From: a virus
Taxonomy: Duplodnaviria > Caudoviricetes
DNA: 64,000 bases
IMG/VR virus record: IMGVR_UViG_2687453619_000001
Location: 11,484 to 75,483 of that record
Strand: one strand, 5' to 3'
Of this stretch, positions 6,839-32,445 are shown in pieces (positions within the stretch are counted from its first letter, which is position 1; the number at the start of each line of letters is the position of its first letter). A program made the position numbers and the translations under genes. Below the pieces are notes generated by a model that saw only the letters and a list, made by a program, of their open reading frames with translations, was not told the DNA's origin and did not search any database.

Positions 6839-7348
6839 ATGGGTATGCCAAAGAAACTCAAGGCTTTTAACTTGTTCGACAACGGCAATTCCTATCACGG
6901 TGAGGTGGAGGAAATCACCTTGCCAAAACTCTCCCGCAAGATGGAAGAGTACCGCGCCGGCGGCATGACCGGCCCGATATCGGTGGATTTCGGTAACGAA
7001 GCCATCACGCTGGAATGGACCGCCGGCGGCATCATCCTGGAAGCCCTGCTGCAGTACGGCGCCCGCAGCCACAACGCCACTCAGCTGCGCTTCGCTGGTG
7101 CGTATGAGGATGACGACAGCGGCACCGTGTCTGCCGTGGAAATTGTCGTGCGTGGCCGCCACAAAGAAATCGACATGGGCAACGCCAAGGCCGCCGAAGA
7201 CACCAAGCAGAAATATACGACCGCCTGCAGCTACTACAAGCTGACCATCGATAACCGGACCATTTACGAATTCGACTTCATCAACGGCGTCGAAAAAATC
7301 GGCGGCGAGGATCGCAACGCCAATATTCGTCGGGCCATCGGACTTTAA
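6839..7348 (+). CDS. FII: Tail tube protein FII
   Basis: PKKLKAFNLF, LPKLSRKMEEYRAGGM, VRGRHKEID motifs. Confidence 0.97.
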   Translation: MGMPKKLKAFNLFDNGNSYHGEVEEITLPKLSRKMEEYRAGGMTGPISVDFGNEAITLEWTAGGIILEALLQYGARSHNATQLRFAGAYEDDDSGTVSAVEIVVRGRHKEIDMGNAKAAEDTKQKYTTACSYYKLTIDNRTIYEFDFINGVEKIGGEDRNANIRRAIGL

Positions 7349-14516: not shown

Positions 14517-14809
14517 TGGCGGCGTCGAATGTCAGTTTAGAGCAACTGCAGCGCGTCCACCACGCCTTGCGCATCACCATCCCGCTGCATGAAGTGTCGC
14601 CGCTGATGCTGACGACGCTGACCACCATTGCGCATTGCTGGCGCGACCGGATCCCGGCGCATCTGTGGTGGAATCCCGCCGAAGAGGCGCGGGGCAGCAT
14701 GAGCGAAGGGGAGTTCCAGCGGCTTTATACCTGCACCTTTGCCGCTGCACCCGATACCAAGCACCAACCGATTGACCTTAAACGCCGCGCCGCGGCTGAT
14801 TACGAATAA
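14516..14809 (+). CDS. Hypothetical phage protein
   Basis: C-terminal DLKRRAAAD; conserved at 59284. Confidence 0.65.
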   Translation: MAASNVSLEQLQRVHHALRITIPLHEVSPLMLTTLTTIAHCWRDRIPAHLWWNPAEEARGSMSEGEFQRLYTCTFAAAPDTKHQPIDLKRRAAADYE

Positions 14810-14813
14810 CACG

Positions 14814-17492: not shown

Positions 17493-17707
17493 GTCTAATT
17501 ACTCAAGCATTCATCGTTGAGCGGTTCGGCTTGCGGCTCAATGTTGAACAACTTGCCGGGCTGTTGGGTATAACAAAAGGAGCTCTTTATAATCAGTTGA
17601 GTGCAGGAACGTGTCCGGTCAAAACCTATATAGACGGTGGAAAGCGGTGGGCCGATTATCGAGACGTTGCTGAACATCTTGACGAGTGTCGGACATTAGC
17701 GGGATGA
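17489..17707 (+). CDS. Excisionase/AlpA-like HTH protein
   Basis: LNVEQLAGLLGITKGALYN winged HTH; near integrase. Confidence 0.7.
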   Translation: MSLITQAFIVERFGLRLNVEQLAGLLGITKGALYNQLSAGTCPVKTYIDGGKRWADYRDVAEHLDECRTLAG

Positions 17708-17769
17708 ACGATTGGAAAAAGAAGGCAAATGACGGGATGTTTGGACTAGCATGTGCTCTTTACATCGTT

Positions 17770-19026
17770 TCAATGGTGCTCATATGGATATTTTTGAATA
17801 TACATTTCGATGACAAGTTCTGCTCGCGTTGTATTTGGATTTTCTGCAAGCTTTTTACGTTTTTCAAAAGGGATCTTTGCGGCAAGTAGTTCGAATTCGA
17901 AGAACGTAAACTTGTGGTCGGTGTCGTCAAAAAAGAGGTGGGCAATTACCTCGTCCGCCGTTTTTCCATAGTTGTTTCCGCCTTCGAAAAAAACCTTCAG
18001 TAGATTTTCGTCAAGACTGAAAGTAGTACCAGCGGGTAGGGCAATTGACGTTCTCGGAACAAGTTTTTGAGATGGAATTTCCCTAGCATCGGGACGGTCG
18101 CCGACCGCAGCAATCGCCTGAAAATCAGCTAGCGCTTTTTGTGATTTGCGACCTAAGTATGGATTTATGACCCCATAGCTTGAGAAGCGTGTCGTTGTCG
18201 TTAGGGGATGTATCACTAGAGATGGAATGTGGATTTGCAGCCAACACAGAAGCACATTGCGACAATCGGTAAGAATTGGGGTTGTTATCGTGGGCTTGGC
18301 GATTTCAATCAATTTTTTTTGGACTACATCTCTAGCATGATCACTAGTCTGCCCGATTGTAAGCCCATTATGAGGAAACGCCGCCTTAGTAACGTCTGCA
18401 GCAATTATTCCATACGCTGCTTTCTTACCATGCTGGCTTGGCATCCGTGCCATTAGTTGTTTCTTCGCCTTTTTTAGATTTTGTTCCAAAGCGTTAGAGC
18501 CTGCAATTCTCTTGCACTCTAAATAGAATATGTGTTCAGGGGAGACTGCAACAACGTCGGTATCAGTCGAAAGGTCTACCTCACATCCCATCTGGCAGAA
18601 GTAGCTAGCTATTCGAAGCTCGAACTGGGTGTTACGTGACACTGTGTCGGTGTCCATTGCAGCAAAATCGCTTCCACTGACAATCATTCGAAGCTTATTG
18701 TCAATACCCGCTGGGATATGTGCTTTGAGGCCCTTAAGAATCCACATAAGTTCGTGTATTTCTCGTAGGACGTACATCTCCCAATCAATTTCACGTTCAA
18801 AGCGTGCATCGGATATATTTTTGAATATCTTGACAGCACTGACAGAATTCGCGGATTCGACGTGCTCAAGGTATTTTATGTAGCGCTCAATTCTCGTGTT
18901 ACGGGTATCAATTCCGCGAGATTCTAGAAGTTCTTGTACGTTCACAATATCCGCTAGGTGGTCGGAGAATCGCAACCCAGGAATGGAGTGGGTTGGCAGT
19001 GGGTAAGAATTTATGTCTTCAGTCAT
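17770..19026 (-). CDS. Hypothetical protein with PD-(D/E)xK-like nuclease motif
   Basis: FELRIASYF...TDVVA...FYLECKR; low GC cargo. Confidence 0.55.
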   Translation of the reverse strand: MTEDINSYPLPTHSIPGLRFSDHLADIVNVQELLESRGIDTRNTRIERYIKYLEHVESANSVSAVKIFKNISDARFEREIDWEMYVLREIHELMWILKGLKAHIPAGIDNKLRMIVSGSDFAAMDTDTVSRNTQFELRIASYFCQMGCEVDLSTDTDVVAVSPEHIFYLECKRIAGSNALEQNLKKAKKQLMARMPSQHGKKAAYGIIAADVTKAAFPHNGLTIGQTSDHARDVVQKKLIEIAKPTITTPILTDCRNVLLCWLQIHIPSLVIHPLTTTTRFSSYGVINPYLGRKSQKALADFQAIAAVGDRPDAREIPSQKLVPRTSIALPAGTTFSLDENLLKVFFEGGNNYGKTADEVIAHLFFDDTDHKFTFFEFELLAAKIPFEKRKKLAENPNTTRAELVIEMYIQKYPYEHH

Positions 19027-19189
19027 CTAGTCGACGTAATTTGTCTCATAGGATTTACGGAGTGCTCTTACTGCTCTCAAGCAAACGAGTGAAACACAAC
19101 CAGATATTTAATGATCATACTGGCAAATTGGCACGAGGTTATCTTCTGCGTCGCTTTTGTTCGATGTAAGATCTCCTGGAGGAGGCTGA

Positions 19190-20197
19190 CTATTCAGCTG
19201 TCTTCTTTTCCCGATGGAGATCCTCGGGCTTTAGATTGGTATACCGTCGTAAATGACGCCAATCTTTATGACCAGTTACCAGCGACACCTGCTGTATTTC
19301 GTAACCTTCTTCAAATAGCCGTGATGTACCTTCATGCCGCAGGTCATGGAAGTGTAGATCTGGAATGCCGAGCTCGTCGCAAGCTTCTTTGAAGTATTTT
19401 GATACGGTCTGTTCATGTACAGGAAATATGCGATCGTTATCCTGGGACTGCCGTTGCACAATGTCCCATGCGTCACCGAGCAGCGGTACCCACTGATCGT
19501 TCCCTTGCTTCTTTCGTGGATCTTTCCGATCACGCACCAGGACCAATTTTTTTTCTGAGTCTAAATCTGTCCAGCACAACTTGACAATTTCACCTCGCCG
19601 CATCGCAGTAGCGATCGCAAATCTGACCAGATCGCTATATGGCTGTTTAAGTTGATTTAGCAGACCGGCTATTTCATCCTCTGTTGGTCGGCGTTCCCGC
19701 TTGCCGCCCCCGCCAATGAGCCCTAGGTGATTCAAAAGGGGGCGGGCCTGGCCCGTGACGTCGGGAAGCGCTATTTTGAGGAACGACCCGGTATAGCGCA
19801 TTACAGTCCCAAGTTTGCTTAATTCCATATTGATGGTGTACGGACCGGCACCTTCTTCCTTCCTCATTTGGCAATATGAAACGAGATCCTGAGTCGAAAG
19901 CGCTCCTGCGCGCTTGTCCCCCAGTCCATCAGACAGGCGTCGAAGCATGTAATGTTCGTTGGCGGTATCGGCAATAGGGCGGGACTGATCTCGGAGCTCG
20001 CGATACGCTTGTATCACTTCATTAACACGAAGTACCCCCGGCTCTGCTACAATTTCGCCGCGGTCGATCTCGGCTTCGCGTTGTCGTGCCCATGCTTCGG
20101 CCTGGGCTTTGGTCTGGAATGTCTTGCACAATCCTTTATGGCCTTTACGACGTATAAGCGCACGCCAAGAAACGCCGATTTTTACTATGCTTGCCAT
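19190..20197 (-). CDS. int: Tyrosine integrase (intact)
   Basis: TAMRRGEI, HFHDLRH, TGHKDW..LRRY catalytic residues. Confidence 0.97.
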   Translation of the reverse strand: MASIVKIGVSWRALIRRKGHKGLCKTFQTKAQAEAWARQREAEIDRGEIVAEPGVLRVNEVIQAYRELRDQSRPIADTANEHYMLRRLSDGLGDKRAGALSTQDLVSYCQMRKEEGAGPYTINMELSKLGTVMRYTGSFLKIALPDVTGQARPLLNHLGLIGGGGKRERRPTEDEIAGLLNQLKQPYSDLVRFAIATAMRRGEIVKLCWTDLDSEKKLVLVRDRKDPRKKQGNDQWVPLLGDAWDIVQRQSQDNDRIFPVHEQTVSKYFKEACDELGIPDLHFHDLRHEGTSRLFEEGYEIQQVSLVTGHKDWRHLRRYTNLKPEDLHREKKTAE

Positions 20198-20227
20198 GTA
20201 TCACTCTCTATATCACTTTGTATCACT
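20197..20227. repeat. Three TRTATCACT direct repeats, putative arm-type integrase sites (prophage 1)
   Basis: TGTATCACT 20197, TATATCACT 20209, TGTATCACT 20219. Confidence 0.6.
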
Positions 20228-20305
20228 GACAGTCTGATACACGATTATATCGAATGAGTGCCTCATAGGAGGAATAGCTAAAATATCAATGGAAATATAT
20301 CCAAT

Positions 20306-20380
20306 CTCGCCATAGTTCAATGGATAGAACGAGTGCCTCCTAAGCGCTAGATACAGGTCCGATTCCTGTTGGCGGGACCA
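20306..20380 (+). tRNA. tRNA-Arg(CCT)
   Basis: Full cloverleaf: acceptor CTCGCCA/TGGCGGG, anticodon CCT 20339-20341, encoded CCA; T-loop reads TCCGATT. Confidence 0.93.
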
Positions 20381-20415
20381 GACAGCCCTTATTTCATGCG
20401 CCTTGCAGGGGATAT

Positions 20416-20435
20416 TGGCGTAATTCTGGCGTAAT
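20416..20435. repeat. Two TGGCGTAAT direct repeats, putative arm-type sites (prophage 2)
   Basis: Copies at 20416 and 20427, 35 bp after the tRNA 3' end. Confidence 0.5.
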
Positions 20436-20547
20436 CATAATAATTTGCCGCAGTCTGCTGGCCAGCGCGGAAAGTGTGGCGCTGAAGTGGCTGTTTCTCT
20501 CCCCCCAGACAAGCAAGTGCCGAAAATAAGGTACGCCTCGGGAAAAC

Positions 20548-20822
20548 GGTAACATTAGTAACCTTTTTTGAAAATCGGCCGCAAAGCATTGTCGCATAAG
20601 GCTTTGTCGGTTTCGATAAAAGGTAACTTCGGGGTAACCTAGGGGTAACATGGTTACCATAGTAGAAGGTAATATAGCTAAAAAATAATAGTTATATATA
20701 TCAATAATTTAGATGCAAGTTACCTTTTGGGTTACCAAAGATTACCTTTCAAAGGTAACTACCTAATTCTATATAAATCAGGCACTTACAAAGGGAAAAA
20801 CCGACAGGTTACCAAGGTTACC
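20548..20822. repeat. GGTAAC/GTTACC iteron array, putative replication origin
   Basis: 10 exact and 3 one-mismatch copies around an AT-rich core; IHF-like sites at 20699-20711 and 20776-20788. Confidence 0.7.
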
Positions 20823-21005
20823 TTTCCCCCGCGGTCAAACCTGAAATCGGCTTTTCTTTGCTTCCGTCCGTCCCTCGTTTTTACGCCTCCGCCTGCGTCG
20901 TTTTGCGTCACTTTTTTGCGACGTATTTGTGCCCTTCGCCGGCAGGTTTCTCCTATGTGCGTCACCTCTGGAAATTTGAGTCGAAAGCGACCAATTTAGC
21001 GGGCA

Positions 21006-21031
21006 GGCGTGGCGGGGGGATGACTGCGCGC
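21006..21031 (+). other. cos site 1
   Basis: GGCGTGGCGGGGGGATGAC-TGCGCGC, similar to P2 cos GGCGAGGCGGGGAAAGCAC-TGCGCGC. Confidence 0.8.
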
Positions 21032-21146
21032 GCCGACTCATAATGCCGGTTCTAGCCCTGCGTACCTTACTCGCAACAGTTGAAATTACTTGCAATATAA
21101 TTAATCTTCTGTAAAGATAGCCTCGAAGCAATTTTAGGGACTGGCT

Positions 21147-21764
21147 ATGGCAATGCGGAAGATTGTCGTTGTAGGCGACAAGACAACTACAAACGGTGTG
21201 ATCCTGCCGAATGCAAATTCAACTTTCTCTCTTGGCGACGCCGGACACAAGGCGGCGCTAATCGGTGGGCCGGTGCAATGTCTTGCCTGTAAGAGCGAGG
21301 GAGTCATTGCTAAGGCCGGAGGACCGCGCCGGATGCAATTTATGGGCGAGGTCGCACTGGAAGACGATATCGTCATTTGCGGCTGTCCTGTCCATCCGAA
21401 GCTCGTAGCGAGTCTCCATCAAACAATGACCTACGATGACGGCATAGAGTCATCAGGGCCCGTATCACCTCCTACAGGGGCCGGTGCAGCGTCTGCTGCC
21501 GTTGCAGCGGCTACAGCAGCTGCCTCTTCTGGCGGTACTCAAGATACCCAAGAAAAGCAAGGCAAGCGTTTCCTATTCCAAGATAGCGAAACTGGGAAGC
21601 CATTGGCGAACCGTGCATATCTTGCCAAAGTTGGCGGCGCTCAGCAGAGCGGCGTGACTGATGGTGATGGATACGCCAATGTTGATGCAGCGCCTGGAGA
21701 GGCGATTCAATTACATTTGATATTCCAAGCGCCAACAGGCGCATTGAAGCACGGAGAGGCTTGA
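21147..21764 (+). CDS. PAAR-domain protein with C-terminal adaptor-like extension
   Basis: VGDKTTTNG..CLAC..GEVALEDD..CGCP; tail DSETGKPLAN..GVTDGDGY. Confidence 0.85.
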   Translation: MAMRKIVVVGDKTTTNGVILPNANSTFSLGDAGHKAALIGGPVQCLACKSEGVIAKAGGPRRMQFMGEVALEDDIVICGCPVHPKLVASLHQTMTYDDGIESSGPVSPPTGAGAASAAVAAATAAASSGGTQDTQEKQGKRFLFQDSETGKPLANRAYLAKVGGAQQSGVTDGDGYANVDAAPGEAIQLHLIFQAPTGALKHGEA

Positions 21765-21765
21765 G

Positions 21766-22491
21766 ATGGGAACAGACGCGCATTACACGCCGACGCAGTG
21801 GGCAACTGCTTTTACAGAGTCAGACTACATATGCAAGCCGTTCAAGCTGGTTACTGTCAATGACAGAGCAGCTACCCGGGAAGCAATCATTACTCGTGTT
21901 CGACAGCAAGGCATGGAGTTCGTAGAGCGATCCAGCTGGGCCGCGCATAAGAACCGCTCAGAAAAAATGAAGGACGACTGGAATTACACCAAGATCGCCA
22001 TCCATCATGCCGGACGTAGCTTCTCCTGCGGGCCTGCCGCACTACAGTTGCAGGAAATCCAAGGCGAACAAATGCAACGTATCTCAGCGGACGATATTGG
22101 TTATCACTATGCCCTTGATTGTTTCGGAAACGTCTTTGAGGGCCGAGATATCCGGTTCAAGGGAGAGCATGTGCATAACTACAATACCGGCGTTATTGGC
22201 ATCGTCCTGCTGGAAAATTTGGCCGAACCGGAAGAAGGCGGCGATACCGTATCTGCCGTGAGAAAATTTTTTAGTGCAATGGGTGCAAATGAACAGCCTG
22301 CAGTACCGACAGCACAAAGCGAATCAGCTACAAAATTCATCGCCATATTGCGCGAATTCTTCGCCATTACTACCCTGGGTGGGCATAGAGAATTCCCTGG
22401 GCAGACTCGGGAAGGGAAGATTTGCCCCGGTAACGTAGGTCTATCTTTTGTGAAAAAAGCTCGTGCTGCCAGCGGACTTGCAGCGCCATAA
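21766..22491 (+). CDS. PGRP/T7-lysozyme-like N-acetylmuramoyl-L-alanine amidase
   Basis: IAIHHAG, DIGYHY, FEGR, GHREF, KICPG (H/H/C zinc ligands); no signal peptide. Confidence 0.88.
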   Translation: MGTDAHYTPTQWATAFTESDYICKPFKLVTVNDRAATREAIITRVRQQGMEFVERSSWAAHKNRSEKMKDDWNYTKIAIHHAGRSFSCGPAALQLQEIQGEQMQRISADDIGYHYALDCFGNVFEGRDIRFKGEHVHNYNTGVIGIVLLENLAEPEEGGDTVSAVRKFFSAMGANEQPAVPTAQSESATKFIAILREFFAITTLGGHREFPGQTREGKICPGNVGLSFVKKARAASGLAAP

Positions 22492-22508
22492 CGGAACAAC
22501 CAAATTCA

Positions 22509-22835
22509 ATGCAAAAACCATTCAATAGAAAAATCATTTACGTAGCGACTTTGGTCTTCGTACTGCTGATTGCTTGGCTGTTCACAGGATACGTGCGCTC
22601 GTATCTGGATGACGAACAGCAAACCTCATTTTTCATCAAGAAATTTCCTACCTTTCAATTGGAGTTTGTCGATCCTTTTGCTAATGAGGGCGATAGTCCT
22701 GCCATCGCTGACCTTTCCACCGTGGATAGAAAATCGCTTGTTGACTACTGCAAATATCGCTTTGGCGTAACGTCAGGCAGCGATGAAGCGCTGGATGACT
22801 GCGCTAAGAATATTCCCGGTTACTTGAAACAGTGA
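22509..22835 (+). CDS. Membrane-anchored protein, putative immunity protein
   Basis: N-terminal TM helix, two Cys, directly after the amidase. Confidence 0.55.
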   Translation: MQKPFNRKIIYVATLVFVLLIAWLFTGYVRSYLDDEQQTSFFIKKFPTFQLEFVDPFANEGDSPAIADLSTVDRKSLVDYCKYRFGVTSGSDEALDDCAKNIPGYLKQ

Positions 22836-22920
22836 TAGTGATAGTGCCAAGTCTCTAACCAAGCGGCATCATGAGGAAAGTGCATTTGACAAGGCCGGCA
22901 GGATTACTACACGCACTGGC

Positions 22921-23208
22921 TTAGTCAACGTTCCCGCGAATCAGTTTCTTAACGGCTTCGTACGTGTCTTCAACTTGCAGAGTCCGCACGGACCGAAACA
23001 CAGTTCCATCTCCGTTAAGCTCGGGGTCAACTTGGTCATCAGGTTCAAGTAGCGTGATTATGGTCTTGGCACCGAATTCCCCGTAATACTCGTGCATGTC
23101 TACAAAGGTAGTAATCTGATCGACTCGGATACTGCCTTTTCGCGTTGGAGCGCCTACCGATTCTTTGGAATCGCTGCGAATGGTTACTTCAATGAAGTGT
23201 GTGTTCAT
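22921..23208 (-). CDS. Hypothetical protein
   Basis: AAAGGTGA RBS before ATG 23208; last gene of SRAP cluster. Confidence 0.6.
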   Translation of the reverse strand: MNTHFIEVTIRSDSKESVGAPTRKGSIRVDQITTFVDMHEYYGEFGAKTIITLLEPDDQVDPELNGDGTVFRSVRTLQVEDTYEAVKKLIRGNVD

Positions 23209-23230
23209 GGTTTCACCTTTTCTTTGAAAA

Positions 23231-23914
23231 TTAGAACAATGTGCCGTTTGATTCGACACGTTTCGTCGTTGATTTTCTCGGGGGTGCTGGTGCCGGCGCA
23301 GCTTTCATCAGCGCGGGCGGGTATAGCTGGAGATATGCTCTAGCGCGTTCAGGATCAGTGCATTCTAACCAGTCGCTGTAGTCGGATTCCGGCACGATCA
23401 CCAATGACCGTTTTTCATCGTCTGGCTTGTGGAATCGCTTCATCAGTGGATGGTCGTCGGCATTGACTGTAATTTGCGTGAATGAGTGTGTTGTTGATCC
23501 ATCAGGCTCATGCCATACACGCCACATGCCGGCGACTGCAAACGACGCCTGATCAGCCATTCCAATGCTCCACCGAACGGCCGAGCCAGTCTCGTAACAA
23601 GGCTCATAGAACGATTCCATCGGGATTAGACAAAGCTGCGCCGCACGCCAGTACTTTGCAAAGCTCGGCTTTTGTCCTATCGTCTCGGCCCGCGCATTCA
23701 TGGTTGAGAATTTTTTGATACCTGGCGGAATATGTCGCTTTGGCACCATCGCATAGCTGGCTAGGATCACTTCGTTGCCGCCGGCACCGCGGCGAATTAT
23801 CGGGGCATCGTAGTCATTGTAAATTTCGTTCGGCCAGTCTAAGCCATTGGGCATCATGGCCTTGAAAATCGGCGGCAAACGGTCACGCGGCGTTGCATTG
23901 TAATTTGTACACAT
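23231..23914 (-). CDS. SOS response-associated peptidase (SRAP/YedK family)
   Basis: N-terminal MC, NARAET, FYEP, HPLMKRFHKP..EKRS. Confidence 0.9.
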   Translation of the reverse strand: MCTNYNATPRDRLPPIFKAMMPNGLDWPNEIYNDYDAPIIRRGAGGNEVILASYAMVPKRHIPPGIKKFSTMNARAETIGQKPSFAKYWRAAQLCLIPMESFYEPCYETGSAVRWSIGMADQASFAVAGMWRVWHEPDGSTTHSFTQITVNADDHPLMKRFHKPDDEKRSLVIVPESDYSDWLECTDPERARAYLQLYPPALMKAAPAPAPPRKSTTKRVESNGTLF

Positions 23915-23943
23915 AGTTCGACTCTCCATACAGCAGATGCGAT

Positions 23944-24285
23944 CTAGTCTATCAACACCGCCGCTTTTTGTTGCGTCGTCATTTCCAAAATTTTAATCCG
24001 CCAACTCTGCGCGAAGGTTTGCCCTGTGACCTCATCCTTCTGAAGACCACTTAAAAGCATGTGATCCTTGTAGATGCCAAGCACGGCCACATCCTGCAAG
24101 GGTGGCAGCGAATCAAATTCGCCATTCAGAAGACGCGCAACGTGATAAGTCCGCTCCGCCAAGTATTCACTCTTTTGGCGCTCAATGCGAAGTTCTCCGC
24201 ACAGACAATTCATTTTGCGCTTGTCCAGCGCTTTCTGGTCAAGGGTGCGCCCCTCATCCCAAAGGCTCTCCACTCTGACAAACAT
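23944..24285 (-). CDS. Hypothetical protein
   Basis: 113-aa ORF immediately upstream of SRAP, same strand. Confidence 0.65.
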   Translation of the reverse strand: MFVRVESLWDEGRTLDQKALDKRKMNCLCGELRIERQKSEYLAERTYHVARLLNGEFDSLPPLQDVAVLGIYKDHMLLSGLQKDEVTGQTFAQSWRIKILEMTTQQKAAVLID

Positions 24286-24373
24286 TTTTCACTCCAAATA
24301 TTTGATTTATAGAAACATGGAAAATTGACCCCGCAACAGCTAGCAGTACAGCGCCGGCAATGCGATAAGCGAA

Positions 24374-24685
24374 TCAATGAACCCTGTGAAATGCGTCGTA
24401 GATCATTGAAAACGCGCAGGCAATCGCACTTGATTCGCCAAAGTCGACCAGGTCATCATTCAGCGGATAGTTGAAAACCCCGGAGTGCCTAATCAAGTTG
24501 ATGTAGGCTGGCTGGAGGTCGTCGGCGCGGTTCAATTCGGCCAGCACTTCGCCTTCAATCGAATGGATTAACCGCCAGGTAAGCGGCTGCCCCTCGGTGC
24601 GGTGGCGGGTGACTATTATCGCAATAATTGGTTCTGCTCGAGCAATTACTGCATCAAATTCGTTCATGTTGGTAAGGCGCATCAT
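24374..24685 (-). CDS. Hypothetical protein
   Basis: GGAG RBS before ATG; first gene downstream of the SOS-box-like sites. Confidence 0.6.
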   Translation of the reverse strand: MMRLTNMNEFDAVIARAEPIIAIIVTRHRTEGQPLTWRLIHSIEGEVLAELNRADDLQPAYINLIRHSGVFNYPLNDDLVDFGESSAIACAFSMIYDAFHRVH

Positions 24686-24704
24686 TTTCTCCAAAGCACA
24701 AATA

Positions 24705-24722
24705 TACTGTATATATACAGTA
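24705..24722. promoter_or_regulatory. LexA-box-like perfect palindrome (2 bp short)
   Basis: TACTGTATATATACAGTA = CTGT-N6-ACAG rather than canonical N8. Confidence 0.45.
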
Positions 24723-24875
24723 TAAACGCTTATCGAGCTTTTGCAAAAATTCCGCGCAAAGTGCGTTATTTTGCGCCAAGCCGTTGCAGGTGGTTTCCCG
24801 GCGCACCCAGCACAGCTCGGGGGCTTGGCGTTTTTGCGAACTGCGTTAGAAGAAGTGCATTAAACGAAGCCGGCA

Positions 24876-24903
24876 GGCGCGGCGGGGGGGATGACGGCGC
24901 GCC
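24876..24903 (+). other. cos-like site 2
   Basis: GGCGCGGCGGGGGGGATGAC-GGCGCGCC; near-copy of site 1 with one extra G. Confidence 0.65.
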
Positions 24904-24923
24904 GACCGTCAAATGCTCCTATA

Positions 24924-24943
24924 TACTGTGTATGAACACAGTG
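24924..24943. promoter_or_regulatory. LexA (SOS) box
   Basis: TACTGT-GTATGAAC-ACAGTG, canonical CTGT-N8-ACAG. Confidence 0.7.
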
Positions 24944-25162
24944 TATTGCTAAAAATGCATTGGTAAATCATCTGTCCTAAATCTATGTCCCGAAAGAGGG
25001 GCCGCACGATGCTTTATAATTCAGCGGATTTGCCCGCCAGTGGGTTGGCGGCCAGGCAGAATGGCGTTACGCGTGATGGTAAATTTGGAATTTAAGGGGT
25101 AGCAAGGAAAAATCTTTATTCAACAATCAGTCGCCCTTGGGCACTCTGCCGTGAGAACAGGG

Positions 25163-26227
25163 ATGAAAAATCTAAAATATTGTGTGTTCGGAGATGTTGA
25201 TCTTGCAGATAAATTTTTCGATTCTTTAAAAGAAGACTATGCTGAGTTCAGTGATTGGTTCGAACGCAAAGCTGCAAGTCAGGAAATGGCCTACGTGTTC
25301 TATCGAGCGCGTGAAGAAATTGATGGTTTTTTGTACCTAAAGACTGAGGTTGGAGTTGTTGCAGACATCGTCCCACCATTAGCATATGGTCGCCATCTAA
25401 AAGTCGGCACACTGAAGATTAATGCTCATGGAACAAAGCTCGGCGAACGATTCATAAAAAAGATACTCGATCATGCGGTGCTTGACGGTGTTGATGATGT
25501 GTACGTAACCGTGTTCGAAAAACATGAGAATTTGATTGATCTCATTACCAGATATGGTTTTGAGAGACATGCAGAAAAGCAAGGGAGAAATGGCGTCGAA
25601 CTAGTGTTTCTCCGAAAAATGAAAGAGGCGCAAGGTGATGTTCTCAAAGACTATCCCTATATCTTGCCCGATCATGGAAACGCCTTTTTGCTTGGAATCT
25701 ACCCCCAATACCATACTCGATTTCTTCCCGATTCAAAATTGCACAATGAATCGTTTGACATACTAAAAGACGTTTCACACACCAATAGCATTCACAAGAT
25801 TTTCATTTCTGGAGTTGCCGCGACAGGCAAGCTAAGTGCTGGTGATATCTTGGTCATGTATCGCACAAATGATGGGAAGGGAGGGGGTAAGGCCTACTAT
25901 CGTTCCGTTGCCACATCAATATGCGTCGTTGAGGAAGCAAGAAAAATAAAAAGCTTCGATACGAAAGGTGAGTTTATGCGCTATGTTAAGCCGTACAGTG
26001 TTTTTGATAGTGCCGAATTGGAAGACTATTTTCATAATAAAAAGCGCCGCACAATAATTAAATTTACGTATAACGCAGCTTTGACTAAACGAATTATCCG
26101 TGGCAATTTGATCCAAGAAATTGGTATCTCCTCTAAGAGTCGCTGGGATTTTTTGAAGTTAACCAAAGAACAGCTGTATCAAATAATACAAGTTGGAGAA
26201 TTAAATGAGAATTTTATTATCAATTAA
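25163..26227 (+). CDS. GNAT acetyltransferase fused to PUA/ASCH-like domain
   Basis: LKVGTLKINAHGTKLGERFI..YVTVF..RYGF GNAT; C-terminal PQYHTRF..GDILVMYRT. Confidence 0.7.
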   Translation: MKNLKYCVFGDVDLADKFFDSLKEDYAEFSDWFERKAASQEMAYVFYRAREEIDGFLYLKTEVGVVADIVPPLAYGRHLKVGTLKINAHGTKLGERFIKKILDHAVLDGVDDVYVTVFEKHENLIDLITRYGFERHAEKQGRNGVELVFLRKMKEAQGDVLKDYPYILPDHGNAFLLGIYPQYHTRFLPDSKLHNESFDILKDVSHTNSIHKIFISGVAATGKLSAGDILVMYRTNDGKGGGKAYYRSVATSICVVEEARKIKSFDTKGEFMRYVKPYSVFDSAELEDYFHNKKRRTIIKFTYNAALTKRIIRGNLIQEIGISSKSRWDFLKLTKEQLYQIIQVGELNENFIIN

Positions 26228-26618
26228 GCCGGAATTTGCTGCAAAAATTTTAGCCGGCGACAAGCGGTTCGAATTCCGTAAGTCGGCATTTGCAAACGTG
26301 TCAGCTAGTTGCATCGTGATTTATGCAACTAAGCCCGTAGGAAAATTGGTAGGTGAATTTGATGTTGAAAAAGTCTATGTAGATGCACCTGAGAAGATAT
26401 GGGATCGCACTAAAAAATTTGCCGGAATTGCGAAAGAGCGTTACGACGAGTATTACAGTGGTCGAAGTAAGGCCGTTGCTATTGCTGTTGGTGAAGTTAG
26501 GAAATACAAAGTTCCGCTGGATTTGGCGTCGATTGGGGAGCGAATTGTTCCCCCGCAATCATTCAGATATTTACCATCAGATGATTTGAGCGCCGAAAAG
26601 CAGCTCGTGCTGGTATGA
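26205..26618 (+). CDS. ASCH domain protein
   Basis: LLSIKPEFAAKILAGDKRFEFRK (GxKxxExR), YATKPV, PPQSFRY. Confidence 0.88.
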   Translation: MRILLSIKPEFAAKILAGDKRFEFRKSAFANVSASCIVIYATKPVGKLVGEFDVEKVYVDAPEKIWDRTKKFAGIAKERYDEYYSGRSKAVAIAVGEVRKYKVPLDLASIGERIVPPQSFRYLPSDDLSAEKQLVLV

Positions 26619-26636
26619 AAATTCAAAATTCTTGAG

Positions 26637-27170
26637 GTGGCCGTGAAAACGACTATTTTGAATAGGGAATACCTTTGGAGGAATCCTGAAGAAAGCCTAT
26701 TGCTTCTTTCGGATACCAGAAAAATGTTGACTCGAATGTCAGATTTGTACCCGGATTTTAAAAAATGGTTCGATACTAAAGTTCGGGCGGGTGTCGACAA
26801 TGGGAGTAGATCAATTATTCTCGCCCATGCAAACGGTGTTTTAGCAGGTGTAGCAATTGTTAAGGATACAAAATTTGAGCAAAAACTCTGCTGCCTAAGG
26901 GTTGTAGAGGATTTTAATGGGTCTGGCCTCGGACTCAAGCTATTTGAGAAAGCTTTCGATGTATTGAAAAACGAAAACCCGTTGCTTTCCGTATCGGAGG
27001 AGCATTATGAGACTTTTGCGAAAATATTTCGTCACTATGGCTTCGAATTTGGTAAGGCCTACGACGAATTGTATCGGCCTAAGAAAATTGAACTTAGTTT
27101 TAATGGTCTCTTGGTTCCCGAAAATACATTACTTGAGAAGGCCACTGAGACAATTGATTGTTCGCTTTAA
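26637..27170 (+). CDS. GNAT acetyltransferase
   Basis: KLCCLRVVEDFNGSGLGLKLF acetyl-CoA motif, F..YGF. Confidence 0.8.
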   Translation: MAVKTTILNREYLWRNPEESLLLLSDTRKMLTRMSDLYPDFKKWFDTKVRAGVDNGSRSIILAHANGVLAGVAIVKDTKFEQKLCCLRVVEDFNGSGLGLKLFEKAFDVLKNENPLLSVSEEHYETFAKIFRHYGFEFGKAYDELYRPKKIELSFNGLLVPENTLLEKATETIDCSL

Positions 27171-28385
27171 AAGTGTTTGAAAGAGCGCTTTTTTGCGAAA
27201 CCAATCAAAAATATTTCCCGAAAAAATCAACAAAATAGCGATCAAGAGAATCAACAAAATAAGAAAAACGTTGTTAGTGTCGTCTCCACCCCAAGATCCA
27301 AAGAAATGTCCGCTTTTGAATTTTATGATTTCCCAGGCGCCGTTGCCAGCCATCCCAAAAACGAGACCTAGTCCAATAAATCGAAATATTTGTGAAGTGC
27401 TTGAGCTTGTACGAGAAAATCGTCCAAGCGCAACTAAATCCTTTACATGTCCTGCTTCGTTCCCGCCGCCTTTTATGGCTTTAGTCCACTGATAACCTAA
27501 GTAATTTCTAACTGAGCCATCAGTTGTTATTGGTGCGTTTACATTGCTTCTTACGTATTCATTCCACACATCTTCATCCATTAGTGAGCGGCAGCCGACA
27601 AAATTTTGCCCCTCGAATATGCACTCTTGGGAGCGATTTATGGTCAGAAAAAAATGGATTTTCTTAAACTTTGGAAAATGTGTATTCGAATCCCCCGCAA
27701 GAAGCTCGTCGGGAATACCTCTTCGCACGTTGATCCGGAAGTCGATGATTCGAGTCTCAATGAATGAACTTAATATATTTCTATCTGGCTGACAAAATGT
27801 CGCTTGATAGATGGCATGTGGGACGTTTTTTATCCGAAACCGTAGGTAAATTTTGGAGGATATTGATGCATATCCAGACAGCGCTGTGTCAGATAAATTT
27901 ATTCGTAAAATTGTCATCTCTCCCTCCCCGGTGAGTCTCGGAAAAACGGAGAAATGAGTAGAGTTTAAACGGAGCAATACGAATTCTGTTTTTTGTTCGG
28001 TCGAACTTTTCTTCGTCTGCTGATCATTGTCTTTTAGAAATGAGACGCTTGCAAAAGGTTCGTCGGCGCTTCCATCGTACCTGACAGCTTCATTAAATAT
28101 TGCGGCGATACTTTTTTCGCTGTTGAGCCGTGTGCCAAGATCCATTATCGCTTCAGCGCCTAATTTCCATGGGAGTACGACCTCGATGGCATTGACCTCG
28201 GCGCGGTTCGAAATCAAGATGCCTATGTCAATAAATGGCCGGCTCCCGACTTCCCATAAATTTACGTGAAGCTCATCAGCAGCAGCGTCAACGGGAGTTG
28301 ACGTTGAAACGTCGCCTTCGTTCGTCTGTCTTGCAACATATCTGACGATTATTCCGGAAAAAGGATGCACCGCGTACCCCCCCAC
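27129..28385 (-). CDS. Hypothetical protein, large soluble domain plus two C-terminal TM helices
   Basis: 418-aa ORF; hydrophobic FIGLGLVFGMAG and VFLILLILLIAILLIF; start uncertain. Confidence 0.7.
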   Translation of the reverse strand: MGGYAVHPFSGIIVRYVARQTNEGDVSTSTPVDAAADELHVNLWEVGSRPFIDIGILISNRAEVNAIEVVLPWKLGAEAIMDLGTRLNSEKSIAAIFNEAVRYDGSADEPFASVSFLKDNDQQTKKSSTEQKTEFVLLRLNSTHFSVFPRLTGEGEMTILRINLSDTALSGYASISSKIYLRFRIKNVPHAIYQATFCQPDRNILSSFIETRIIDFRINVRRGIPDELLAGDSNTHFPKFKKIHFFLTINRSQECIFEGQNFVGCRSLMDEDVWNEYVRSNVNAPITTDGSVRNYLGYQWTKAIKGGGNEAGHVKDLVALGRFSRTSSSTSQIFRFIGLGLVFGMAGNGAWEIIKFKSGHFFGSWGGDDTNNVFLILLILLIAILLIFSGNIFDWFRKKALFQTLLKRTINCLSGLLK

Positions 28386-28487
28386 TTAGTTATTGATTTT
28401 CAGCAAGCATAACACTTGAGGTAACTAAATTAGTGCTGAGTAATGATTTTCAATGTTTAGAGAGTAGCAATGAAAAGATGGGAGGCT

Positions 28488-29021
28488 TTAATTTGGTAAC
28501 TCGTCAAAAAAACTGTCCATGACCTTTGTGAACGAAATTTCAGTGGGCGCAAAAAGCACTTCAAGACGAATGTTTAAAGCTCTGCAGACTAATTCGGCTT
28601 GTTTTTTTTCTGCCGCGCTAAATGTGGCGATATTTTCTACCAAAAAATTTGCATCACGGTCCCCCAATCTCTTCTGCACGATCTCCGGACTATCTTCCAA
28701 TAAGACAATTCCATTAAGATTCAGCGCGGAAAAAATTTCAGGATCAATTGGCTGCAGCTTCCCCTCAAAATCTTTGAGGACAAAGTGGCCATCAAGTAGA
28801 AGTTCTCTTCCAGACGCATGAATTTTTTCTACGGCCTTGATTAATGCGGTCTGATTTTTATCTATGTCTCCTACCAATTTGTTTTTGGTCCAATTTGCAA
28901 CAAGAAGCTCCTCGCGGATGAGTGTACTTGCAGTTGCATGAATGATATTTTTGCCTGCAACGTATTTATCGCTGAGGTATGTTTTACCGACACCATGAAC
29001 ACCCGCAACAAATATGACCAT
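28488..29021 (-). CDS. Adenylate/NMP-kinase-like P-loop protein
   Basis: IFVAGVHGVGKT, LLLDGHF, RLGDRD lid. Confidence 0.8.
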   Translation of the reverse strand: MVIFVAGVHGVGKTYLSDKYVAGKNIIHATASTLIREELLVANWTKNKLVGDIDKNQTALIKAVEKIHASGRELLLDGHFVLKDFEGKLQPIDPEIFSALNLNGIVLLEDSPEIVQKRLGDRDANFLVENIATFSAAEKKQAELVCRALNIRLEVLFAPTEISFTKVMDSFFDELPN

Positions 29022-29249
29022 TTTATTTTTTCCTTGTTAGAAAGCCGCATTTCAAGAAAGGTAATGACGAAATTTTTCACCTGTTGCAAGTATTTTACAC
29101 AGATATCAATTGCGGCATTTTTACCGTATTTGCTTTTAAAGTGTGGCTTCATTTCGCGCAACAGCGATGATCCGACCCCCGTAGTGCGCGCCTCACAACC
29201 TGATGTATGGTGCGCAGTTCGATCGGTTTGAGCGCAATCGCGGTAAAAA

Positions 29250-29459
29250 TTAGCGCCCAGCACGGCGAAGCGCTGCTTTTTCCTTGTCGTAGTCATCGCG
29301 GCAATCCATATTGCAAAACAGAAGCGCCGGCGCGATCTGCTCGTCGCAAAAATGGCAGCGACCGTCACTTTCCAACATTTGCTGCTTTCTGACATGTGCC
29401 ATGGCGTTATGCACGTCTTTCTCAATGCGCCAGATGGCGCGGTCTGCGATGTCGCTCAT
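29250..29459 (-). CDS. TraR/DksA-like C4 zinc-finger protein
   Basis: N-terminal DIADRA, CHFC...FCNMDC; ATGA-coupled to portal. Confidence 0.6.
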   Translation of the reverse strand: MSDIADRAIWRIEKDVHNAMAHVRKQQMLESDGRCHFCDEQIAPALLFCNMDCRDDYDKEKAALRRAGR

Positions 29460-30520
29460 TGCTTGTTTCCCTCTCCTGTCAATAATTCGTATTTTTCAAA
29501 TTTCACGACCTCGATGCCTAGCCAATCGTTGAGCGCCATGAACTGAGATTGCAGCGGCACCAGCTCGTTGCGGGCAAATACCCGGGCGGCCGGTTCAATC
29601 GCGCCGAACCCGCCGGTATTGTTCGGCATGATTCCCATCAGCTGAGGCGGCACGCGATGGCCGGCCAGCACGTCGTCGCGGGTGACTCCCTTGATGTTGA
29701 AAAACTCATCCTTCGCCGCCACGTCTGATACCGGCAGGATCTGGATCCCGTCTTTCTTCCCGTTCGGCGCGTACATGAACAGATTGCGGAAATTGCCCGG
29801 CCCTTTGCTGTCGCGCATGGCCTGCCGCAAGTTGTCGACGTCTTTCACGTTGGCGGCCGGATCGGTCATGTAGAACACGAAGCCGGCGTGTGAGCCGTTC
29901 TTGTAATACTTGCGCCGGAACAGGGTGGCTGCCTCATTCAACCAGGCCGATTGCAGGGCGGAGAGGTATTGCGGCACGCCGTACACCTCCTGGTTCAGAT
30001 CCGGATCCATCAAATGAAAAACGGATCCCTTGTCGAAGGTATATTCCTGCTGCCATCCCGCCACAAAATAGTAGGTATCCAGATCCTTGCCGCGCCGCAT
30101 GTACTTCGCCAGGGAGTGCTTTAGCTGTAGGGGTTGGCGGCTAAGGCTGGCGCGCTTCTCCAGATAGCCATTGCCGAAGGTCAGGAAATCCAGCACGAAG
30201 CGTTTAAACGTATCCCGCGACAGGTACTTGTGCGGGATGAATGTCGAGGTCAGGATGTTGGTTTTAAAATAAATGGCGCTGCTGTGGTGGACGCTGGCGT
30301 GAAACGATTTCGCGAGACCCGCCAGGCTGACCGGCGGCTCGTACCACTTGCCGTTGAGCCAGCACTCAAAACAGTCCAGCACCTCGCTGTGATCGAGAAC
30401 CGGTGTCGGGTCGCCAAAGCTAAACGCCTCCATACCGCCGCCGGCGCGGGGTACGTCTGCCAGCGGCGCCGGCGGTGTCTCGGCATGCTGCGCGGCGCGC
30501 CGATGCTGCTTTCTGCTCAT
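29456..30520 (-). CDS. Q: Portal protein gpQ
   Basis: AFSFGDP, WYEPPVS, FRRKYYKNGSHAG, HRVPPQLMG. Confidence 0.97.
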   Translation of the reverse strand: MSRKQHRRAAQHAETPPAPLADVPRAGGGMEAFSFGDPTPVLDHSEVLDCFECWLNGKWYEPPVSLAGLAKSFHASVHHSSAIYFKTNILTSTFIPHKYLSRDTFKRFVLDFLTFGNGYLEKRASLSRQPLQLKHSLAKYMRRGKDLDTYYFVAGWQQEYTFDKGSVFHLMDPDLNQEVYGVPQYLSALQSAWLNEAATLFRRKYYKNGSHAGFVFYMTDPAANVKDVDNLRQAMRDSKGPGNFRNLFMYAPNGKKDGIQILPVSDVAAKDEFFNIKGVTRDDVLAGHRVPPQLMGIMPNNTGGFGAIEPAARVFARNELVPLQSQFMALNDWLGIEVVKFEKYELLTGEGNKQ

Positions 30521-32304
30521 GATGTATATAGCTCCATAAAGGATTGGGTGTTCTCGTTGGCGCCCTCGAATGGTTCGTGATCGAGTGCGTGCATGCAGGC
30601 CCACGCCAGGTCGGCATGGCCGGTTTCATCGGTACGGCCGGCGTCATAGGTGACTTGCCGCCCGCTCGTGGTGAGGGTTTTGCGGATGGTCATGAAGGAC
30701 TGCGCAATGTCGGTCCAGCCGGCGTCGAATTCCAGCCGCGCCTTGTTGACGATGTTTTGCGCCTTCAGCACCATCCGGGTTTTGACTTCCGGCGAGTAGT
30801 TGATCGCCGTCGCCAGCGGGAAGAACTGTTTCACCAGGGGGTACACGCCGACGCCCATGCCGGTGGTGTCGATGCCGATATAGGCGACGTTGTAGCGGGT
30901 CGTCATCTCCTTGATCGCCTTGGCCTGCGCCTCGAAGTCGATGCCGCGCCACTGGAAGCGCTCCAGGATGCGGAATTTGCCGCCGGCGACCAGGGGCGGG
31001 GCGATCACCACGCAGCCAGCGCTGTCGCCGGTCAATGAGGGGTCGTAGCCGATCCAGACCGGCCGGTCACCGAAGGGGCGGCTGGCGAACGGCTTATAGT
31101 CGTCCCAACTGACCCAGGAATCGATCATGCAGCGCTGCAAGGCCATCAACGGGAACACGGATTGCGTGTCGTCGATGAAGTTGCACATCAGCAGATTTTC
31201 AAACTGGTCCGGGCTGTACTCGAAATTGCGCAGCTCATCGATGTCGAACAGATTGCAACCGCCGCGCTCGGCGTCGAGGATGGTGACGATCTGGCGCCAC
31301 ATCTTGTCCTCACCTGTAAAGCCGCTGGACAGCTTCAAATGGCTGATATCGATGTCGACCTGGTCAGCCTTCGCCCGGCGCTTGTTGAACAGTTCGCCGG
31401 TCCAGAACGGATACGCCTGGTGCGTGATCGAGGAGGGCGTCGAAAAGTAGGTCTTGCGCCACTGCTTATGCAGCGCCATGCCTGACGCGACCTTGTTAAG
31501 CTCCTGGAAGTTGTGGGTCCAGAAAAACTCGTCAAAGTAGAAATTGCCGTGATAGCCCTGGGCGGTGCGCGCATTGGTCCCAAGGAAATACAAGTGGGCG
31601 CCGTTCGGCAGCACAATCGGGTCGCCGGCCAGCTCGATGCCGGCGGCCTCCTTGGCGAACTGGATGATGTACTGCTTAAAAACGTGTGCTTGCGCCTTGG
31701 ACGCTGACAGGAAGATCTGATTGCGGCCGGTTTGCATCGCGTCGGCCAGCGCCTCCCGGGCAAAGTACCAGGTCGCACCGATCTGGCGCGATTTTAAGAT
31801 CACCCGGGTTCTTTGGTCGCCGTTGCGATGCCATACCTTCTGGTAATCGAACAGGGAGTCCCTGAATGCCTCCAGTAGCTTGTCTTTCTGCTCCTCGCTG
31901 AAATCGTTCCTTGTCGGCTTCTTCTTTGGTTCGGCGTTACGGTTCGCCAGCTTCGGGTTCAGGTCGACTTCGTTGCCACCCGGCGCCTCATAGCGGCGCA
32001 CCCGGGCAGTCTGCACCACCTGGCGCATCAAGAGGTCTATTTCCTTGAAATCGCCGCCGGTCTTGGCGTCCTTGGTGATCAGCTGCACCAGGCGCGATTC
32101 CAGCGTGGCTTCGATCTTCTCCAGCGGAGTGGCTTTGTCCCATTCGTCGCGCTGTTTCCAGCTCTCGATGGTCGTGCGCTTCTGCAGCAGGTGTTTGGCA
32201 ATGGAGGTGACGCGCCAGCCTTGCCAGTACAGGTGCTTGGCAATGCGGCGCGGATCCACTTCGGGTTCTATTTCGGCAGGGTGTTCTTCGATCAATTCAG
32301 ACAT
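30517..32304 (-). CDS. P: Terminase ATPase subunit gpP
   Basis: LYWQGW, LKSRQIGATWYFAREA, YFDEFFW, GHADLAWA. Confidence 0.97.
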   Translation of the reverse strand: MSELIEEHPAEIEPEVDPRRIAKHLYWQGWRVTSIAKHLLQKRTTIESWKQRDEWDKATPLEKIEATLESRLVQLITKDAKTGGDFKEIDLLMRQVVQTARVRRYEAPGGNEVDLNPKLANRNAEPKKKPTRNDFSEEQKDKLLEAFRDSLFDYQKVWHRNGDQRTRVILKSRQIGATWYFAREALADAMQTGRNQIFLSASKAQAHVFKQYIIQFAKEAAGIELAGDPIVLPNGAHLYFLGTNARTAQGYHGNFYFDEFFWTHNFQELNKVASGMALHKQWRKTYFSTPSSITHQAYPFWTGELFNKRRAKADQVDIDISHLKLSSGFTGEDKMWRQIVTILDAERGGCNLFDIDELRNFEYSPDQFENLLMCNFIDDTQSVFPLMALQRCMIDSWVSWDDYKPFASRPFGDRPVWIGYDPSLTGDSAGCVVIAPPLVAGGKFRILERFQWRGIDFEAQAKAIKEMTTRYNVAYIGIDTTGMGVGVYPLVKQFFPLATAINYSPEVKTRMVLKAQNIVNKARLEFDAGWTDIAQSFMTIRKTLTTSGRQVTYDAGRTDETGHADLAWACMHALDHEPFEGANENTQSFMELYTS

Positions 32305-32343
32305 GCCGCAAGCGTATGCGTCGCGCGCGTGTAGCGGGGAAAG

Positions 32344-32376
32344 CAGAGGGTTGATATACGGCTTATCAACCCTCTG
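32344..32376. promoter_or_regulatory. Late-promoter dyad between divergent P and O
   Basis: CAGAGGGTTGATA-N7-TATCAACCCTCTG. Confidence 0.7.
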
Positions 32377-32445
32377 TTTGTTGTCGCATCCCGCGCCAAG
32401 GCCGACCATGGAGTCCTTATCCAGCACTCACACCGAGCCGACACC

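Follow-up and report, generated by a model that had tools for sequence, protein, structure and literature searches.

A five-gene GNAT-EVE/ASCH cassette of a P2-like prophage as a possible extended form of a candidate defence or toxin-antitoxin module

The closest described relatives of the locus analysed here are the (PIN)-GNAT-EVE operons, which according to Bell et al. (2020) were first described by Iyer et al. (2013), the source also of the idea that nucleic acids are acetylated. According to the accessible part of Bell et al. (2020), to which all statements on that paper are limited here, an ASCH protein is encoded in nearly all of these operons and an AAA_17 ATPase in many, the form lacking a PIN domain is common in prophages of beta- and gammaproteobacteria, and the operons are predicted to be toxin-antitoxin (TA) systems possibly acting on aminoacyl-tRNA; as of that publication the modules were all uncharacterised. 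Relatives bearing a PIN domain are embedded in restriction-modification (RM) loci (Bell et al. 2020; Payne et al. 2024, in the accessible parts of both). The PDC set of PADLOC comprises 145 untested candidates, which were detected through their position inside BREX, DISARM or type I RM loci (accessible part of the preprint by Payne et al. 2024), and includes PDC-M11. Moreover, a GevT toxin/GevA antitoxin pair is annotated directly after cI of the lambdoid Escherichia phage PhiR47_2 (GenBank PV340567.1). In the present study, a five-gene cassette at positions 25163 to 29021 of a 64,000-nt stretch of a Caudoviricetes record (IMG/VR record IMGVR_UViG_2687453619_000001, positions 11,484 to 75,483; the whole stretch is called the window) was compared with these systems. 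The first two genes were found to be homologues of the described modules, and gene neighbourhoods in other genomes indicate that all five genes are one conserved mobile cassette. In the preferred reading, to which a probability of about 0.55 is given, the cassette is the extended five-gene form of this known, uncharacterised candidate defence/TA module.

The genes, referred to as g1 to g5, and the adjoining features are:

25163..26227, plus strand: g1, GNAT-EVE/PUA-like fusion, 354 aa from ATG (open reading frame open from GTG 25151, 358 aa)
26205..26618, plus strand: g2, stand-alone ASCH protein, 137 aa
26637..27170, plus strand: g3, stand-alone GNAT acetyltransferase, 177 aa
27129..28385, minus strand: g4, beta-rich domain plus C-terminal membrane segment, 418 aa, unnamed family
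28488..29021, minus strand: g5, AAA_17 P-loop protein, NTPase resembling nucleoside monophosphate (NMP) kinases, 177 aa, upstream of g4
27129..27170: convergent 3' overlap of g3 and g4, 42 bp
24926..24941: LexA-type box CTGT-N8-ACAG, 222 bp before the g1 ATG, context only

The consensus of g1 homologues begins at ATG 25163 and not at GTG 25151, and g1 overlaps g2 by 23 nt on the same strand. For g4 the true start is likely to be 28370, because the database copy P0001 has 413 aa. In relatives, open reading frame coordinates place the g3/g4 junction anywhere between a gap of 17 bp and an overlap of 38 bp.

Models of both components of PDC-M11 were matched over their full length: g1 matched M11A (PDLC04419, PDC-M11A; E 1.7e-141, residues 4-358 on profile positions 8-357 of 357) and the adjacent g2 matched M11B (PDLC04425, PDC-M11B; E 5.3e-47). 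The cassette thus resembles PDC-M11 in its adjacent, overlapping g1 and g2, but PDC-M11 is defined by two genes, as far as its model names show, whereas three more conserved genes are present here. Of the components of a Bell-type operon, the GNAT domain with EVE/PUA-like barrel, the second, ASCH protein and the AAA_17 protein were found, the latter encoded on the opposite strand from g1 and g2, while the N-terminal PIN domain was not. Since g1 starts directly with its GNAT domain, it is the PIN-less prophage subtype of GNAT-EVE. The domains of g1, g2 and g5 and the habitat, as PIN-less modules in beta- and gammaproteobacterial prophages, are those given by Bell et al. (2020), whose main text, as far as accessible, differs in containing neither a membrane protein (the word 'transmembrane' occurs 0 times) nor a second stand-alone GNAT. 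With the GevT toxin gene of PhiR47_2, g1 shares 49% identity over 100% of its length (tblastn). The commonest prophage copies agree with GevT/GevA in g1 identity and gene layout; compared with their ASCH gene, g2 shows 58% identity. The gene overlap and the status as prophage cargo are also shared with GevT/GevA; the PhiR47_2 locus differs in consisting of two genes only, directly after cI. When the PADLOC comparison was run, the statement of the initial annotation that the system is undescribed and unnamed therefore fell for g1 and g2, and the undescribed part is the g3+g4 extension and the five-gene composition only.

More distant systems share single traits with the cassette. Toxins of the AtaT, TacT and KacT type are single GNAT domains with antitoxins of the ribbon-helix-helix (RHH)/DUF1778 type. 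As in these GNAT type II toxins (AtaT, TacT, KacT, ItaT), an acetyltransferase is proposed here to poison translation via charged tRNA, but the GNAT domain is fused to a reader barrel and its partner is an ASCH protein; no match to an RHH/DUF1778-type antitoxin family was obtained for the cassette proteins in Pfam or NCBIfam. With a soluble domain followed by a membrane segment at the C terminus, g4 recalls, within a mobile cassette of several genes, the effectors of CBASS and Pycsar; unlike there, no cyclase or nucleotide-sensor domain was matched (PADLOC, Pfam) and the g4 fold is without a match.

The protein g1 has 2274 relatives in the protein collection and matched phrog_6345 (7.8e-146); in Pfam, a weak GNAT match below the cut-off was obtained. 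An AlphaFold2 model was built on 30 homologues (predicted local distance difference test, pLDDT, 88.5). It shows an N-terminal GNAT fold followed by a C-terminal PUA-like barrel. Foldseek retrieved GNAT proteins (PaiA, Naa50) for the N-terminal half and, for the barrel, the Zymomonas mobilis protein ZmASCH as best match (template modelling, TM, score 0.73-0.75 by target) together with the EVE-like entries 2g2x and 2ar1. Pfam EVE was matched in the relatives L024 and L026 (L-numbers are our labels for loci) but not in g1 itself. By BLASTP, g1 and g3 have no significant similarity (E 0.24), yet both match phrog_13728.

For g2, Pfam ASCH was matched at 7e-6 and the motif GxKxxExR is present. Its closest solved relative is ZmASCH (PDB 5gus, 5guq), matched by 5gus in a PDB sequence search with E 5.6e-13 over residues 4-127; unlike g2, ZmASCH is the ASCH part of a helix-turn-helix-ASCH protein. 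Tyr47 and Ser128 of ZmASCH, which are nucleic-acid-binding residues, are kept as Y40 and S119 in g2 and its homologues. In the accessible parts of the literature, EVE and ASCH domains are modified-base readers, ASCH enzymes deacetylating N4-acetylcytidine are reported, and operons combining ASCH proteins with acetyltransferases are noted. N4-acetylcytidine-type chemistry would accordingly be possible for g2 by analogy, the ASCH deacetylase activity having been reported in other clades; a writer family of the TmcA type was not matched among the cassette proteins in Pfam or NCBIfam.

In order to see whether the five genes occur together elsewhere, loci were collected from three starting points. 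Starting from g4, 12 loci were obtained when one genome was scanned for each species, and these loci were searched with the five window proteins by tblastn. All five genes were found in 9 of these 12 (L001-L006, L008, L009 and L010), from Methylophilus, four Pseudomonas, Erwinia, Morganella and two copies in Janthinobacterium. L008 and L010 are two decayed cassettes in one Janthinobacterium genome, and L009 is the Morganella copy. L012 begins inside g1 and has the order g1>g2>g4>g3, and in L011 (Serratia contig, 4946-7203) a g4-like gene stands beside a divergent AAA_28 P-loop gene. The kinase-like gene g5 precedes g4 only in the window and in L001; it precedes g1 in the other 8/9 five-gene genome loci.

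Starting from g1, a sample of 401 Pseudomonadota genomes centred on the genome of L002 (G002) was searched. PDLC04419 matched 9/401 genomes and the g4 profile 2/401, both beside M11A, one of these two being G002, which was chosen because it carries the cassette. One of the seven regions found by g1 was complete (L023, order g4>g3> <g5<g2<g1), and the six others had g1 and g2 with or without the kinase. Four regions (L024, L025, L027, L028) encode g1 proteins of 492-530 aa with an N-terminal extension of PIN type, as judged by motif; the Pfam PIN matches of L024 and L028 were both below the cut-off. In L026 (1234-3150), the same PIN-type N-terminal motif heads a 638-aa GNAT-EVE-ASCH fusion with Pfam matches to GNAT, EVE and ASCH, and in L025 (9181-10158) ASCH and AAA_17 are fused in a protein of 325 aa. 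L029 is truncated where its contig begins. Relatives of g1 are encoded on 150 stretches in IMG/VR. Gene content was counted for 80 of them (L033-L112), among which many are near-identical prophages and 21 share one g1 sequence: g1 and g2 stand alone in 71/80, the kinase is added in 7/80, one (1/80) has all five genes and one (1/80) is cut after g1. Here, too, the kinase may precede g1, as in L033.

The third starting point was an alignment of 9 distant g4 sequences, 26-36% identical to g4, which led to 30 metagenome loci. These include copies (L127-L129 with L132; L136 with L137). The order g1>g2>g4>g3 on one strand was found in 21/30, and the other 9 miss genes only at contig ends. No match to the kinase was obtained in any of the 30. 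A further cut locus is L145, where g4, g3 and g2 run up to the contig end. Scans of viral contigs with g1 alone or with single distant g4 relatives returned nothing. Taken together, at least four gene orders exist (g1>g2>g3> <g4<g5; g5>g1>g2>g3> <g4; g4>g3> <g5<g2<g1; g1>g2>g4>g3), and in both L012 and L023 there is a 4-nt overlap between g4 and g3.

A quick maximum-likelihood tree was calculated for 68 distinct g1 proteins, leaving out loci with a broken or cut g1 (L008, L010, L012, L029) or with no g1 (L007, L011). Nine of the ten five-gene rows fall into one g1 clade (Shimodaira-Hasegawa-like approximate likelihood ratio test, SH-aLRT, 98), while L023 lies outside on a long branch; by this tree the five-gene form arose once or twice. 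The cassette was kept while its copies diverged to 53-65% identity in g1 and 42-49% in g4, were rearranged several times and moved between beta- and gammaproteobacterial families. On these comparisons, g1 and g2 are a self-sufficient core to which g3, g4 and a frequent g5 are accessories, and in the loci examined g3 and g4 form an inseparable pair found almost only inside such cassettes. The expectation of the initial annotation that the five genes co-occur elsewhere was thus borne out (9/12 loci found by g4, and g1-g2-g4-g3 in 21/30 metagenome loci), but its proposal of an obligatory five-part circuit of writer, kinase, reader and eraser was not, given the 71/80 prophage loci with g1 and g2 alone and the four-gene form lacking the kinase. 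The relatives are flanked by integrases, primases and a relaxase and lie on integrative elements. Two flanking proteins, a type IIG RM enzyme and a mad8-like protein, matched PADLOC models. Proximity to defence islands had been named as a check in the initial annotation, and one relative is located beside the type IIG restriction enzyme.

The accessory proteins differ in how much can be read from them. For g3, Pfam Acetyltransf_10 (8.7e-6) and phrog_13728 (5e-25) were matched, and the acetyl-CoA motif (Q/N)-G-S-G-x-G is kept in 12 aligned homologues. In PADLOC, g3 matched the GNAT part of one M11A model only (5e-7). It adjoins g4 at every locus where the contig extent lets it be seen, and a word-limited search returned only 17 relatives, several of which are on contigs apparently shared with g4 relatives. 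For g5, Pfam AAA_17 was matched (2.1e-14) with faint similarity to adenylate kinase; the Walker A motif GxHGxGK[ST], LDGHF and RLxxRD are kept in 17 homologues, and a weak match to VakA was the only one in PADLOC. The earlier domain calls for g3 (second GNAT) and g5 (NMP-kinase-like P-loop protein) were therefore right according to Pfam, as were those for g2, by its Pfam match and visible motif, and for g1 (GNAT with a PUA/ASCH-like domain), by the fold of its model.

The protein g4 belongs to an unnamed family. No match was obtained in Pfam, PHROGs, NCBIfam or PADLOC, nor in Pfam for 10 distant relatives, and ESM Atlas returned only unnamed clusters of 'hypothetical protein'. Relatives of similar length number 128 in the protein collection, each annotated as 'hypothetical', and when the 50% cluster representatives were searched exhaustively, 552 relatives were obtained with a cut-off of E<=1e-3, falling to 193 at 1e-10 and to 39 at 1e-30. 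The family also has branches in Bacteroidota and Bacillota. The AlphaFold2 model (pLDDT 86.4, predicted TM score 0.82) consists of a beta-rich domain up to about residue 328 and helices at 330-359, 368-387 and 389-417. Hydropathy gives one strong transmembrane segment at about 371-391. The glycine-rich helix at about 333-354 (FIGLGLVFGMAGNGAW) is below the hydropathy threshold of 1.6 in this copy; it is hydrophobic enough for a membrane segment in most relatives and is better conserved across the family than the segment at about 371-391. Of the two C-terminal transmembrane helices given in the initial annotation, one was accordingly recovered, while the glycine-rich one stays below the threshold here. 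The N terminus is without a hydrophobic stretch, and for this reason the large domain is probably cytoplasmic. In Foldseek searches, the best TM score by query was 0.28 in the PDB and 0.26 in a viral library, with no convincing relative; the matches to pentameric channels, aminopeptidase N-domains and ribophorin were taken as no match at root-mean-square deviations of 9-25 Å. Eleven residues are invariant over 30 sequences down to 22% identity (H40, G55, P72, F97, N98, Y180, R182, R184, N219, Y298, W300), and the conservation of H40, N98, Y180, R182, R184, N219, Y298 and W300 suggests that they form a pocket whose ligand is anionic and aromatic, for instance a nucleotide or the end of an RNA.

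With the same probability of about 0.55, the cassette would act as a TA-like, abortive-infection type defence or exclusion module of the prophage. The EVE reader barrel of g1 would find a modified base on RNA, most likely on tRNA or aminoacyl-tRNA, and the protein would acetylate its target so that translation stops; unopposed, g1 would be harmful. The ASCH protein g2 would bind the same single-stranded nucleic acid and remove the mark or process the RNA, serving as the antidote in uninfected cells. This division into writer and eraser is a tentative proposal, with the odds somewhat against it. PIN-bearing relatives (L024, L025, L028) are without g3 and g4, so that a PIN domain on g1 and the g3+g4 pair look like alternative outputs; g4 is therefore read as a membrane effector or anchor. 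As a second, membrane-damaging or membrane-localising arm, g4 might be controlled by g3 through acetylation or direct binding, its slot being filled in other branches by the PIN nuclease fused to g1; such an arrangement is doubtful. The kinase-like g5 and the ASCH protein might have a common nucleotide or RNA substrate on which they act together, or g5 might be a switch that depends on ATP; either role is on the unlikely side. A further variant, in which g3 and g4 are an acetylation-gated membrane arm of an immune module, appears distinctly improbable: g4 would sense an acetylated nucleotide or RNA made by a GNAT protein, or be switched through acetylation by g3, and would assemble via its glycine-rich helix and cause membrane collapse, with the ASCH protein and the kinase-like NTPase clearing the signal in uninfected cells.

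A number of observations weigh against the preferred reading. On the chemical side, motif A of g1 is non-canonical (N-A-H-G-T-K-L-G); the PIN parts of the family are of the PIN_15/PIN_17 type, and the linked GNAT-like domain, with its degenerate motif A, was doubted to be active in the accessible part of Matelska et al. (2017). YqfB was not returned for g2 in the PDB sequence search at E<=1, and ZmASCH is reported, in the part of the source accessible, to be a binder of single-stranded DNA and RNA with weak Mg-dependent cleavage of single-stranded RNA and not a deacetylase. The fold of g4 offers no functional lead. On the side of distribution, most copies do without g3, g4 and g5, and the five-gene form is essentially one clade, so that its co-occurrence is partly shared descent and not repeated assembly. 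Among the nine five-gene genome loci, three (L008, L009, L010) have split tblastn matches in several genes, which point to frameshifts and decayed copies. L007 (Ralstonia metagenome-assembled genome, 5336-7751) carries an ASCH-like reading frame, g4 and g3 and no GNAT-EVE gene, and the contig of L011 ends 328 bp past g4 in a genome without an M11A match. Of the flanking proteins, only 2/10 match defence models. Finally, PDC-M11 is itself one of the 145 untested candidates, no publication using the names GevT/GevA was found in the searchable literature, so that the terms toxin and antitoxin rest on annotation, and no experiment on any family member was found there.

Other explanations have to be weighed against the same evidence. 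The cassette could be a pure addiction module which stabilises the prophage or island and has no role against other phages. It is always located on mobile elements, g1 and g2 overlap as is frequent in TA pairs, and homologues are annotated as toxin and antitoxin; yet the lambdoid copies stand directly after cI, where lambda carries rexAB, and three accessory genes including a membrane protein exceed what addiction needs. The TA prediction of Bell et al. (2020) speaks for addiction, and the embedding of PIN-bearing relatives in RM loci, known from the accessible literature, speaks against it. As the whole explanation addiction is fairly improbable, and the two roles are not mutually exclusive.

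Service to the phage itself, with g1 and/or g3 acetylating bases of phage or host DNA or RNA in order to evade or subvert restriction, ASCH and EVE as readers, and g4 and g5 acting in localisation and nucleotide supply, has a small chance of being correct. Bell et al. (2020), following Iyer et al. (2013), state this possibility for prophage GNAT-EVE, and it would fit the reading of modified bases by EVE and ASCH domains, for which the accessible literature was given above. The cassette adjoins the packaging genes, and g5-g4 run co-directionally with the portal operon, no terminator-like site being predicted in between. Against it stand the many copies on islands or chromosomal loci without a phage, the GenBank annotation of a g1 homologue as a toxin and the lack of a conserved DNA-binding or replication partner.

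It was also considered that g4 is a superinfection-exclusion protein blocking DNA entry at the inner membrane, with g3 modifying g4 and the link to g1 and g2 being regulatory. As a membrane-anchored prophage protein with a large, probably cytoplasmic domain g4 would suit such a role, and tblastn with g4 against phage records gave no match, in line with its absence from lytic phages in these records. However, g4 is strictly embedded in an enzyme operon and also occurs on non-phage islands, and its conserved residues, rich in Arg, His and Trp, suggest ligand binding, which makes this explanation very improbable. Two unrelated cargo modules (g1-g3 and g5-g4) sharing a prophage hotspot, as the opposite strands and the many prophages with g1 and g2 alone might suggest, are scarcely credible and were rejected because the linkage survives divergence, transfer between families and rearrangement: g4 and g3 accompany g1/g2 in 9/12, 21/30 and further loci in at least four orders, co-directional operons place g4 between g2 and g3, and the kinase is upstream of g1 in 8/9 five-gene genome loci and L033 and fused to the ASCH protein in L025.

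The GNAT-EVE/ASCH pair, with its 2274 g1 relatives and 150 matches on viral contigs, is among the commonest prophage cargo modules without a known mechanism. To this pair the extended form adds two experimental handles, a second GNAT protein, with a canonical cofactor motif, and, as a dedicated partner, a membrane-anchored protein whose family is large and unnamed (552 representative relatives). The apparent swapping of PIN and g3+g4 as outputs suggests that the core is a sensor or regulator and that the variable parts are effectors. If nucleic-acid acetylation opposed by an ASCH eraser were true, N4-acetylcytidine biology would be linked to phage-bacterium conflict, and an acetylation-gated g3/g4 arm, if true, would give phage defence its first signalling pathway based on an acetyl mark.

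Regarding its setting, the cassette is low-GC cargo beside the head genes of a P2-like prophage, as supported by several observations. The GC content is 0.38-0.45 over 25000-29249, compared with 0.56-0.61 in the portal/terminase region, and the portal gene (29456-30604) and the large terminase gene (30517-32427) are both located to the right of the cassette. The portal protein is closest to P2-like phages, with 485 matching records and a best identity of 64% to Ralstonia prophages. The five reading frames, their 42-bp convergent overlap, the low GC content and the position next to the portal gene in a P2-like background, all noted in the initial annotation, were confirmed in this way, the position by the portal and terminase genes. 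A blastn search with 24740-24960 for a cos site gave no match in phages, and by megablast the island matched neither E. coli genomes nor phages. An Rfam scan of 19000-30000 returned nothing beyond the tRNA.

A LexA box about 220 bp upstream of the island had been reported as well. The box is present at 222 bp, but it is not conserved with the cassette. CTGT-N8-ACAG occurs once in the window, where 0.49 sites are expected, and at least one site was found in 40/100 shuffles, which by count alone is within chance. A site of this type lies within 600 bp upstream of the g1 homologue in 21/80 prophage loci (L033-L112). Control by the SOS response as a part of the cassette was rejected, since none of the 11 other five-gene loci examined has a LexA-type box (missing from 11/11).

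Further genes surround the island. To its left, a gene for a Toprim primase-like protein of 917 aa (14739-17492) is followed by an unnamed 418-aa gene (17770-19026) and by an integrase gene (19190-20197) adjoining tRNA-Arg(CCT) (20306-20380); the region 14739-20380 may be a second integrative element or a prophage boundary. A similar Toprim and integrase-like pair is located upstream of the five-gene cassette of L033. Between the tRNA and the island, at 21147-22491, a PAAR-motif protein (205 aa) and then an Amidase_2 protein (241 aa) are encoded, neither of which had a PADLOC match. At 23231-23929, on the left side of the island, there is a gene for an SOS-response-associated peptidase (SRAP), and the space between the island and the portal gene contains a DksA-like zinc-finger gene at 29250-29459. 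At 24705-24722, just upstream of a minus-strand DUF2471 gene at 24374-24694, 18 nt form a perfect palindrome (TACTGTATATATACAGTA), which is LexA-like but has a 6-nt rather than an 8-nt spacer. The palindrome overlaps a predicted minus-strand -10 element and may be an operator.

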